From sequence record OL631478.1: DNA of 64,000 bases; one strand, given 5' to 3'. Shown here piece after piece: positions 27,574 to 28,858 of this stretch (position 1 is its first letter; every line of letters starts with the position of its first letter). Source of the DNA: Escherichia phage ECML-1. A model generated the notes under the pieces. That model ran no database searches. It was not told where the DNA came from and worked only from the letters and a program-made list of their open reading frames with translations. Made by a program: the position numbers and the translations under genes.

Positions 27574-28014
27574 TTAGAAAGGTTTTCTACGTTGCTTGTT
27601 AATGTTAGCTTTCATAGCAGCTAAATGGTTTTGCTGTTCAATCAGTCGTGAACGTTCTTGATGACTAAGTGCCATAGTGTTCACATTCTCAATCGCTTGA
27701 GTGGCTTGCTTTAAAGCACGACCAATCTTACCAGACATTTTACGTTTTGCAATAGTTGCTTGATGTTTAGGTTCAACCACACGATAACCAACACCCATTG
27801 AAGCAACCAGATAAATCTTCTCTTCTTTAAGAAGCTTCTCAATAAACTTCTCAAGTCGGTTTAGACGTGTAAGCGCATAAGCCTTCATTTCATCTTCGTA
27901 CTTAACAATGTCACCTTGATAAGTTGGCTTCACAATACCTAAGAAGGTGTCCATCTCAGAATGTGATACAGTGTCACCGTAACTAAACTTTGCTGCTAAT
28001 GCTTTTGTATTCAT
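27574..28014 (-). CDS. Hypothetical protein
   Basis: 146 aa ORF, bracketed by repeat units. Confidence 0.45.
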   Translation of the reverse strand: MNTKALAAKFSYGDTVSHSEMDTFLGIVKPTYQGDIVKYEDEMKAYALTRLNRLEKFIEKLLKEEKIYLVASMGVGYRVVEPKHQATIAKRKMSGKIGRALKQATQAIENVNTMALSHQERSRLIEQQNHLAAMKANINKQRRKPF

Positions 28015-28016
28015 AA

Positions 28017-28619
28017 TTAAACGTTACCTTCTGAAATAACTTCTACAGAAAAACGACCAAAGCGTGGACGCCAATCACCTACACCACAAAGGTTGCCAGC
28101 ATTTTCCAGAACCATCAGAAGTTCCTCTCTGGTGATTTGCTCTTCATCAAACATCAAACCAAATTCTACAGACCAGTCACGGAAGATTGGACGGTAGCTC
28201 ATAACTCGTGCTGTACCAATCTTAACAGACTTAGCATAGATAAAGTCTGGGTTCTTAGCAAGTTCTTGTGGGTTTGCTGGACAGTTCTTGATAGTCATTG
28301 GGAAGACTACATCTGTCAGCATAATGGCTCGGTCAATTACCTTACCAAGTTTGTTGAGTTTTGCACCAGACTTGATACAAGCCTCAATCATCTCACCGTT
28401 CATAACAAAACCTAGCTGCTCATCGTAGTAACAAGAGGTTACCAGTTGGCTTTCTGCTAAGAGCGCATAGTCTTCGTCAGTCTTTTTACGTTTACTGGAC
28501 AGAGACTTGTGATATTTTGTCAGAGGATTTAATGGGTCTGACAGCGTATCAGCGTGGCTCAGGAAAGGACGAGTACCAGTGATTTTGATATTTAACAGTT
28601 TCATAACATTTAGCTCCAC
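28017..28619 (-). CDS. Hypothetical protein
   Basis: 200 aa ORF with GGAG RBS; bracketed by repeat units. Confidence 0.45.
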
Positions 28620-28685
28620 ACTTTAGTTGATTGTTAAGTTGTTTGTAAAGAACCCTCAACAGAAGACTCTTTAGAAACTTGGTAG

Positions 28686-28858
28686 ATTTTTAACGTGGCT
28701 ACTACCATCCACCCATACCTCACCTAACAACACCTAACAACACAAAACTACACCCCACACCACCGCACCACACCAAACATCACTTAAAAACCCTCTTAGA
28801 AGACCCTTAAGTGATGCTGGTGAGTACCCGTTGGTTTATGCTGCTCAGTATACTCACC
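28686..28858. repeat. Structured intergenic repeat unit D (fourth copy, non-tandem)
   Basis: GGTAG-atttttaacgtggCTACTACC X-block hairpin; 80 nt tract ~90% C+A with CCTCACC core; inverted repeat CACTTAA-N19-TTAAGTG (28781-28813); hairpin GGTGAGTA/TACTCACC (28819-28858). Confidence 0.75.

Follow-up and report, generated by a model that had tools for sequence, protein, structure and literature searches.

In the genome of Escherichia phage ECML-1 (sequence record OL631478.1), a stretch of 64,000 nucleotides, hereafter the window, contains two small minus-strand genes (27574..28014 and 28017..28604) accompanied by four tracts that are rich in C and A on the plus strand; three of these lie 3′ of the smaller gene and one lies 5′ of the larger. 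The first-pass annotation of this DNA had described four repeat units bracketing two genes, an arrangement which is confirmed here, and had considered both genes to be unknown, which no longer holds. The locus is very probably a type II Viral Interference Programmable Repeat (VIPR) system of the SUSP1 clade residing in a Felix O1-like phage, where the larger gene is vipr, the smaller by inference vap1, and the tracts belong to four vrRNA genes. That the repeats surround the genes is explained by their role: they supply the guide RNAs of the protein encoded between them. These elements, all on the minus strand, are listed below in the direction of transcription; bracketed NN are additional units at the start of a tract.

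28715..28780, minus strand: vrRNA1 tract, 13 pentamers, NN = TT GT GC GG GG GT TT GT TA GT TA GA AT
28681..28714, minus strand: vrRNA1 tail pseudoknot, stems GTGG/CCAC and GGTAG/CTACC (covariation test)
28017..28604, minus strand: vipr, encoding the 195-residue, RAMP-like Vipr protein (phmmer against PDB 36pp_D; phrog_4652)
27574..28014, minus strand: vap1-like accessory gene, 146 residues (identity with SUSP1; phrog_5926)
27446..27513, minus strand: vrRNA2 tract, 13-14 pentamers, NN = (AA) AC GA GG CG CA AC CT AA CA TA AA GA AT
27412..27445, minus strand: vrRNA2 tail pseudoknot, stems GTAG/CTAC and AATCGGA/TTCGATT (covariation test)
27319..27374, minus strand: vrRNA3 tract, 11-12 pentamers, NN = (GA) GT AA AC TA AT GC CA CA GA TC GC
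27285..27318, minus strand: vrRNA3 tail pseudoknot, stems GTAG/CTAC and AGTCTCA/TGAGACT (covariation test)
27192..27249, minus strand: vrRNA4 tract, 11-12 pentamers, NN = (AA) GG GC TC CT TG GA TC TT TA AA AT
27157..27191, minus strand: vrRNA4 tail pseudoknot, stems AAGG/CCTT and GGCAG/CTGCC (covariation test)

On the plus strand the tracts hold 8-10 ACC trinucleotides per 60 nt, where the background in the window is 0.8, and no further ACC-rich tract is found in the 64-kb window or in the complete 88.5-kb genome of the related phage wV8. Each vrRNA unit is composed of a strict pentamer tract, (GGY-NN)n with n = 11-14 in the window, and a pseudoknotted tail of 34-35 nt, giving predicted lengths of 100, 102, 90, and 93 nt for vrRNA1 to vrRNA4. 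Over 90 nt the units are merely ~60-74% alike because their cores are hypervariable; the conserved feature is the strict 5-nt period. This was examined in 26 relatives with an intact region (from GenBank and IMG/VR), which together with the window make up a sample of 27 genomes. Tract lengths in this sample range from 46 to 96 nt and vary, with two exceptions, by 5-nt steps, forming the series 46, 51, ... 96 with one type of preceding box and 48, 53, ... 83 with the other. Within the register K-G-Y-N-N the information content amounts to 1.85 bits at G2, 1.5 at Y3 (T or C), and 0.9-1.2 at the first position (G or T), while each NN position carries ~0.1. When SUSP1 is included (28 genomes) G2 is conserved in 98%, Y3 in 100%, and G1 in 75-78% of units, and the lengths again step by 5 nt. 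Sixty-nine of the 91 tracts are unique. The tracts are not a decaying microsatellite, since selection maintains three of the five positions and leaves the other two free to vary.

A gap-free alignment of the four tail types agrees with an H-type pseudoknot whose stems occupy positions 3-6/17-20 and 9-15/28-34. Pairing is found in 95% of cells, with compensatory change at nine of the 11 pairs (for instance GTAG/CTAC vs. AAGG/CCTT vs. GTGG/CCAC), compared with 27-38% in controls slid by 1-3 columns, the structure having been derived from the same sequences, four independent tail types in all, that entered the covariation test. The vrRNA1 tail is identical to that of SUSP1 vrRNA1. The loop of the vrRNA4 tail contains seven A's; every other collected copy has six.

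The larger gene had been delimited as 28017..28619 from a GTG codon; its start is the ATG at 28604 (MKLLN..., 195 residues). A phmmer search with this protein returned a sole strong match in PDB, namely 36pp_D, "SUSP1 Vipr protein," to which it is identical at 192 of 195 positions (E 2e-128). Vipr is characterized in two preprints (bioRxiv 10.64898/2026.04.26.720920 and 10.64898/2026.04.26.720927) as a minimal RAMP of ~20 kDa with an RRM core, G-loop, and thumb, which binds one GGY per protomer. The functional residues (RNA or DNA contacts) named in the latter (10.64898/2026.04.26.720927), H17, K33, R39, E71, M72, K82, G87, K88, R138, C173, D177, W178, and R179, are all present in the window protein. 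The 146-residue product of the adjoining gene is identical at 145 of 146 positions to that of the SUSP1 gene directly 3′ of vipr and, judging from this position in the operon, presumably represents the vap1 of the preprint; its product is predicted to bind DNA. Neither protein has a significant Pfam match. Wherever present in the 27-genome sample the two are 98-100% identical, vs. 86-99% for the ligase.

The linkage of repeat and gene was seen before the name of the system was identified. IMG/VR was scanned for the exact pattern (GGTNN)6GGT, and the matches listed include trivial microsatellites and many unrelated contigs with degenerate GGTNN tracts, some forming arrays of more than 1 kb, which in every case lay between genes and on the sense strand relative to their neighbors. 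The open reading frame (ORF) adjoining a large (GGTNN)n array belonged to phrog_4652 in all five unrelated viral contigs checked; the repeats and this protein therefore form a conserved pair. The GGY-NN arrays (L130:3233-4394, L052:2217-3406, L042:4600-5047, L049:10815-11714, L087:3018-4121, L041:3331-5668, and L058:2093-2614) are degenerate, reaching 18 abutting tracts and more than 1.1 kb, with distant Vipr homologues beside them in each of the five contigs that were checked. Probably they represent further VIPR types of different architecture, such as the staggered arrays mentioned in the preprint.

VIPR is described in the preprints as a phage-borne system of RNA-guided DNA silencing, first reported in 2026 (bioRxiv 10.64898/2026.04.26.720920 and 10.64898/2026.04.26.720927). 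Listed as its components are the minimal RAMP-like Vipr, an accessory vap gene, and vrRNAs of 9-16 YNNGG repeats, in which GGY is conserved and NN hypervariable, ending in an invariant 3′ tail, which in the SUSP1 clade folds into a pseudoknot. The preprints further report that SUSP1-infected cells contain four RNAs of ~100 nt, encoded one upstream and three downstream of the genes, which co-purify with Vipr; that targeting requires no protospacer-adjacent motif (PAM), acts on either DNA strand, and results in transcriptional silencing; and that in the SUSP1 clade 18 of the 20 guides with identifiable targets match a satellite phage in E. coli genomes. The window agrees with the SUSP1 locus (L157) in its promoters P1 and P2, hairpin, boxes, tails, leader, and terminator, in the placement of vrRNA1 (28681-28780) upstream and vrRNA2-4 (27157-27513) downstream, in the GGY/NN repeat with its pseudoknot tail, and in having guides directed at the same kind of E. 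coli satellite. It differs in that the carrier genome is a Felixounavirus and not a Suspvirus, that all four NN guides are different, and that its vrRNA1 is unusually poor in canonical GGY. The identity of the locus is thus already known, it being a near-identical member of a characterized clade; the additions made here, that is the guide set of the window, its predicted targets, and the orphan guides discussed below, are modest.

If the mechanism demonstrated for SUSP1 in the preprints applies here too, as the near-identity suggests, minus-strand transcription of the locus would yield four vrRNAs of ~90-102 nt, each a GGY-NN run capped by the pseudoknot tail. Vipr protomers would polymerize on the vrRNA, one per pentamer, with GGY buried and NN presented, and the NN would pair with double-stranded DNA reading NNxNNx..., one base being skipped at each step. 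The resulting R-loop triplex would block transcription, and the product of the second gene, if it is vap1, would enhance silencing.

One question which could be addressed with the window itself is what its guides recognize. The Dit-like gene at 13486..14286 (plus strand), which follows the tape-measure gene, matches a "phage baseplate protein" gene at 91-95% nucleotide identity over ~70% of its length in 474 of 5,426 complete E. coli genomes (~9%). The match lies in a chromosomal satellite of ~11 kb, whose tail genes are related to those of the phage; besides this baseplate (Dit-like) gene it has a tape-measure gene, a large serine recombinase, an HNH gene, and small ORFs, and its integration site is either the yciI-tonB interval or a DUF72 gene adjoining yecD. 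Strains carrying the satellite include NZ_CP064847, NZ_CP169755, and NZ_CP076230. Such DNA identity implies recent gene exchange between the phage lineage and the satellite that its guides target. Used as a probe, window tail gene 14627..15604 gave no DNA match in E. coli genomes or in species genomes, and its protein matches were to whole phages. None of four satellites examined has vrRNA-like tracts of its own. An unannotated segment of 2-2.5 kb is present near the left end of the satellites (L158 7166-9178, L159 3726-6284, and L165 3860-6399) and likewise contains no GGY-NN tract.

Sixty-five unique guides of the clade were scanned against nine satellite loci, with a threshold of at least 80% NN match. 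At a skip of one base 41 of the 65 reached it, compared with none at a skip of 0, two at a skip of 2, and one at a skip of 3; the published 1-nt-skip code is thus independently reproduced. Of the window guides, vrRNA3 has its best match (19/22, 86%) within the large serine recombinase gene of the yciI-tonB satellites (L159, at 13861-13892, and L165), which none of 400 order-shuffled guides equals, and vrRNA2 (best 21/26, 81%) matches the large serine recombinase gene of an O157:H7 satellite (L160 13609-13646), a score reached by one shuffle in 400. Both sites are in frame, such that the skipped base is the third (wobble) position of the codon; the same is reported for natural targets of VIPR (10.64898/2026.04.26.720920, 10.64898/2026.04.26.720927). 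The best match of vrRNA4 (18/22, 82%; reached by 5/400 shuffles) lies at the start of a satellite operon (L166 6941-6972). For vrRNA1 the best score among the nine loci, 18/26, is at background level (204/400 shuffles) and no target was found. Searched for over their whole length and without mismatch, the NNx patterns of guides 2 and 3 have no match in IMG/VR; natural guide-target matches are imperfect.

The setting of the locus is as follows. The minus strand is the coding strand for all genes here, which form part of a leftward operon running from DNA polymerase through ligase to frd and td. Following the ligase stop codon are promoter P1, a hairpin over its -10 element, a beta box, the vrRNA1 tract and tail, the leader, vipr, and vap1; 3′ of vap1 come a UUCG hairpin with a T run, three box/tract/tail units, promoter P2, and gene 26681..27064. 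The remaining features are

28847..28874, minus strand: predicted promoter P1, TTGACA-16-TATACT (11/12 in a consensus scan), upstream of vrRNA1 and vipr-vap
28819..28858, minus strand: hairpin H0, GGTGAGTA...TACTCACC (read from the sequence), conserved in relatives
28781..28813, minus strand: beta box, hairpin CACTTAAG...TTAAGTG, directly 5′ of the vrRNA1 tract
28610..28680, minus strand: leader and ribosome-binding site (GGAG) of vipr (sequence reading)
27540..27562, minus strand: intrinsic-terminator-like UUCG hairpin and T run, 3′ of vap1 (terminator scan)
27514..27541, minus strand: alpha box, TTAAAAGGTCTTTAAGAGGGTCTTTTAA, 5′ of vrRNA2
27375..27407, minus strand: beta box, 5′ of vrRNA3, containing CACTTAA...TTAAGTG as does 28781-28813
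27250..27277, minus strand: alpha box, 5′ of vrRNA4
27103..27137, minus strand: predicted promoter P2, TTGACA-17-TATTTT or, one register on, TTATACT (10/12), ahead of gene 26681..27064; conserved in relatives

The minus-strand TTGACA-16-TATACT promoter which the first-pass annotation placed over a hairpin is retained as P1, a predicted site whose -10 box sits within the 5′ arm of H0 and which is kept in all 27 sampled genomes and in SUSP1. The leader of ~220 nt assigned to the larger gene is mostly vrRNA1. The architecture of the upstream unit (28686-28858) had also been equated with that of all three downstream units; this is correct for the middle one, which shares the CACTTAA/TTAAGTG box, and incorrect for the outer two, which have the TTAAAAGGTCTTTAAGAGGGTCTTTTAA box. 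Strong promoter-like sites are limited to the outermost P1 (11/12) and P2 (10/12); the consensus scan of the locus recovered one weak site (9/12) in the vipr leader and none within the repeat units. Rfam at gathering thresholds and a tRNA scan gave zero matches in the whole window. A composition scan marked a further C-rich, G-poor stretch at 31403-31462 (plus strand), which is without the ACC period. The interval between the ligase stop codon and P1 is a second indel hotspot, adjoining the VIPR locus: an extra small ORF is found there in wV8 (L004, 5285-5435), L008, L018, L026, and SUSP1 (L157), encoding either a hydrophobic protein of ~48 residues or a different, basic product of ~60 residues; the window has neither.

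Several observations weigh against an active VIPR locus of this kind. The downstream array has no promoter-like site and a terminator-like hairpin is predicted 3′ of vap1, which complicates any account of transcription and cutting of vrRNA2-4. Expression, processing, and silencing in ECML-1 are presumed by analogy with SUSP1. At position 175 the preprint lists T175, where the window Vipr and the PDB sequence both have V175, probably a matter of numbering or wording in the preprint. The best matches of guides 2-4, at 81-86% among the nine satellite loci sampled, lie just over the 80% cut-off of the preprint. Lastly, vrRNA1 has canonical GGY in seven of its 13 units, the other six being TGT or AGT, a low-complexity guide (GT, TT, TA), and no target, and it may be weak or decayed. 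This last point leads to the alternative that best survives, that of a partly decayed locus whose proteins are intact, of which at least one guide, vrRNA1 above all, no longer loads or targets, and whose array hitch-hikes. The proportion of canonical units in vrRNA1 falls below the clade mean of 76%, its NN are of low complexity with no target above background, and the orphan vrRNAs described below, which persist without vipr, indicate that vrRNA genes can outlive their partner. Against this, vrRNA1 retains intact G2 and Y3, the positions that are read most strongly, its tract is identical in phage nataliec (L001), the search for its target covered nine satellite loci only, and guides 2-4 do have targets. 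We regard partial decay as unlikely.

The distribution of the locus among relatives bears on the next alternative. The 2.8-kb region around the locus is matched at 80-99% identity by 258 phage records, nearly all of them Felix O1-like myoviruses (Felixounavirus) of Escherichia, Salmonella, and Shigella, the closest being Salmonella phage GE_vB_7A (96.4%). The vipr-vap DNA itself occurs in 117 records at 95.5-98.5% identity. A comparison of related genomes for variability of the cassette, suggested by the first-pass annotation, thus had a positive outcome, also in the 27-genome sample, where 18 genomes have the pair and nine, scattered over the ligase sequence types, do not (L003, which is Felix O1, L006, L008, L012, L013, L015, L016, L019, and L027). 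Every sampled genome retains at least one unit between P1 and P2, with the number of units varying on both sides. In the cassette-less genomes the 5′ end of the intergenic region is colinear with the upstream array of a carrier and the 3′ end with the downstream array, and the tail/box repeat common to both arrays is covered by both alignments, over ~50 nt in L016 vs. L024. These genomes therefore resemble deletions by recombination between flanking vrRNA units; since the vrRNA genes double as direct repeats, the vipr-vap pair could be lost by recombination between them. Further afield, Mooglevirus Maleficent and Suspvirus EP1 have the same gene order without the array, with ~85 nt between the neighboring ORFs; in Maleficent this spacer has one P1-like promoter, placed immediately before the downstream gene. 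Kolesnikvirus M7 also lacks the array, and its neighboring genes overlap. The mapped ends of the UAB_Phi87 genome place its terminus away from the array. The genome papers on Felix O1, wV8, and UAB_Phi87 do not discuss the repeats at this locus.

PeSL elements of T4-type phages are composite terminator/early sigma-70 promoter motifs located by diverse ORFan genes in hyperplastic regions (PMC2839356, PMC4122927). The first-pass annotation had likened the repeats to these, and the corresponding explanation is that they are promoter/stem-loop modules for the gain, loss, and exchange of cassettes, the genes being unrelated cargo. The presence of the cassette in 117 records as against 258 for the region, the recombinant appearance of the cassette-less arrays between upstream and downstream arrays, and the 58-bp direct repeat, DR_4, which the wV8 record annotates on both sides of the two genes, would all be in keeping with it. 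Nevertheless, repeats and cassette protein are also found together in unrelated phages, and such RNAs have this protein as their structurally solved partner; hypervariable cores with a strict 5-nt period make a poor recombination substrate; the repeat units contain no promoter-like site; and no alternative cargo is found at the site in the 27 genomes, the same two genes being present in every carrier examined. A recombination scaffold is hence highly improbable and, as the primary function, already contradicted: the units are genes for guide RNAs and are linked in function to the cassette protein. What stands of the proposed recombination between copies is the deletion-like structure of the cassette-less arrays; the PeSL-type scaffold, given units without promoter-like sites, does not. 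Elsewhere in wV8 (L028, 8100-13630) nine direct-repeat families, DR_1 to DR_9, are annotated between small early genes, a region which probably falls outside the window, and the Felix O1 paper lists similar repeats, one a stem-loop and one with TTGACA in it; all of these look far more PeSL-like than the VIPR units.

The nine vipr-less relatives keep one or two intact vrRNA genes, located between P1 and P2 in the interval from the ligase gene to the ORF204 homologue. Their canonical GGY content (73%) is close to that of carriers (76%), with G2 at 98% and Y3 at 100%, and a satellite match of at least 80% NN is found for six of the 12 orphan guides, vs. 30 of 54 carrier guides. The orphan vrRNAs could be something other than dead remnants, being loaded in trans by the Vipr of a co-infecting relative or soaking up the Vipr of a rival, a suggestion that we put forward tentatively and consider rather doubtful; alternatively, the deletions may simply be recent. 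The available portions of the VIPR preprints make no mention of orphan vrRNAs in vipr-less phages.

Least probable, to the point of being negligible, is that the tracts act at some other level with Vipr incidental (as an R-loop origin, in Rho loading on antisense RNA, as a G-quadruplex, Shine-Dalgarno sponge, or primase sites): the GC skew reaches -0.91 over 100 nt and the locus lies within a replication-gene operon downstream of a strong promoter-like site, but such functions predict neither the 5-nt register with free NN nor the pseudoknot tail, linkage to one protein family, or NNx satellite matches, and phages of the same gene order without the array (Mooglevirus, Suspvirus EP1, Kolesnikvirus) indicate that it is not an essential origin. 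Among individual candidates, an R-loop origin, a Shine-Dalgarno sponge, T7-type primase sites, a rut site, a TRAP-like ring, a two-tetrad G-quadruplex, Chi-like or RecA-preferred GT tracts, an analogy with immunoglobulin switch regions, and partition/iteron sites were dropped on the gene-repeat linkage and the PDB match. A type III toxin-antitoxin system (ToxIN-like) was rejected on account of the 5-nt units with free NN, as opposed to tandem identical repeats of ~36 nt, and of the protein, which is Vipr, as opposed to an endoribonuclease toxin of the ToxN/AbiQ fold, neither cassette protein having a significant Pfam match.

VIPR is a newly described, minimal system of RNA-guided DNA recognition, which is proposed to predate CRISPR. 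The ECML-1 locus places a near-twin of the SUSP1 model system, with fresh guides, within the Felix O1-like phages, which are in wide use. In terms of annotation, a pair of "hypothetical proteins" and 0.8 kb of unannotated intergenic DNA can now be named in more than 100 deposited phage genomes. The predicted targets, among them the integrase of a satellite that ~9% of complete E. coli genomes carry, provide testable pairs for phage-satellite conflict, and the vipr-less relatives with intact guides raise questions of system loss and of guide action in trans.

Compared with known systems, the VIPR units share with PeSL elements that they are repeated intergenic elements bounding an indel between very close phages, with recombination the likely cause of loss; unlike PeSL elements they are confined to one locus, both in the window and across the wV8 genome, always with the same two genes, and have no internal promoter-like site. 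The TRAP protein of Bacillus reads 11 (G/U)AG triplets spaced by 2-3 nt, forming a closed ring that sequesters mRNA and regulates the trp genes. Both are oligomeric proteins that read a conserved triplet at a 5-6-nt period in single-stranded RNA, but the spacers of TRAP carry no information, whereas those of VIPR are the information, the complex then binding DNA. With class 1 CRISPR-Cas (Cas7-type), VIPR has in common, according to the preprints, a RAMP-fold filament on a guide RNA, bases flipped at a fixed period, and programmable DNA binding. It differs in being phage-borne and in lacking a CRISPR array, spacer acquisition genes, and a PAM; in its non-contiguous guide, where two of every five RNA bases pair with two of every three DNA bases; and, for type II VIPR, in an output of silencing rather than cleavage.

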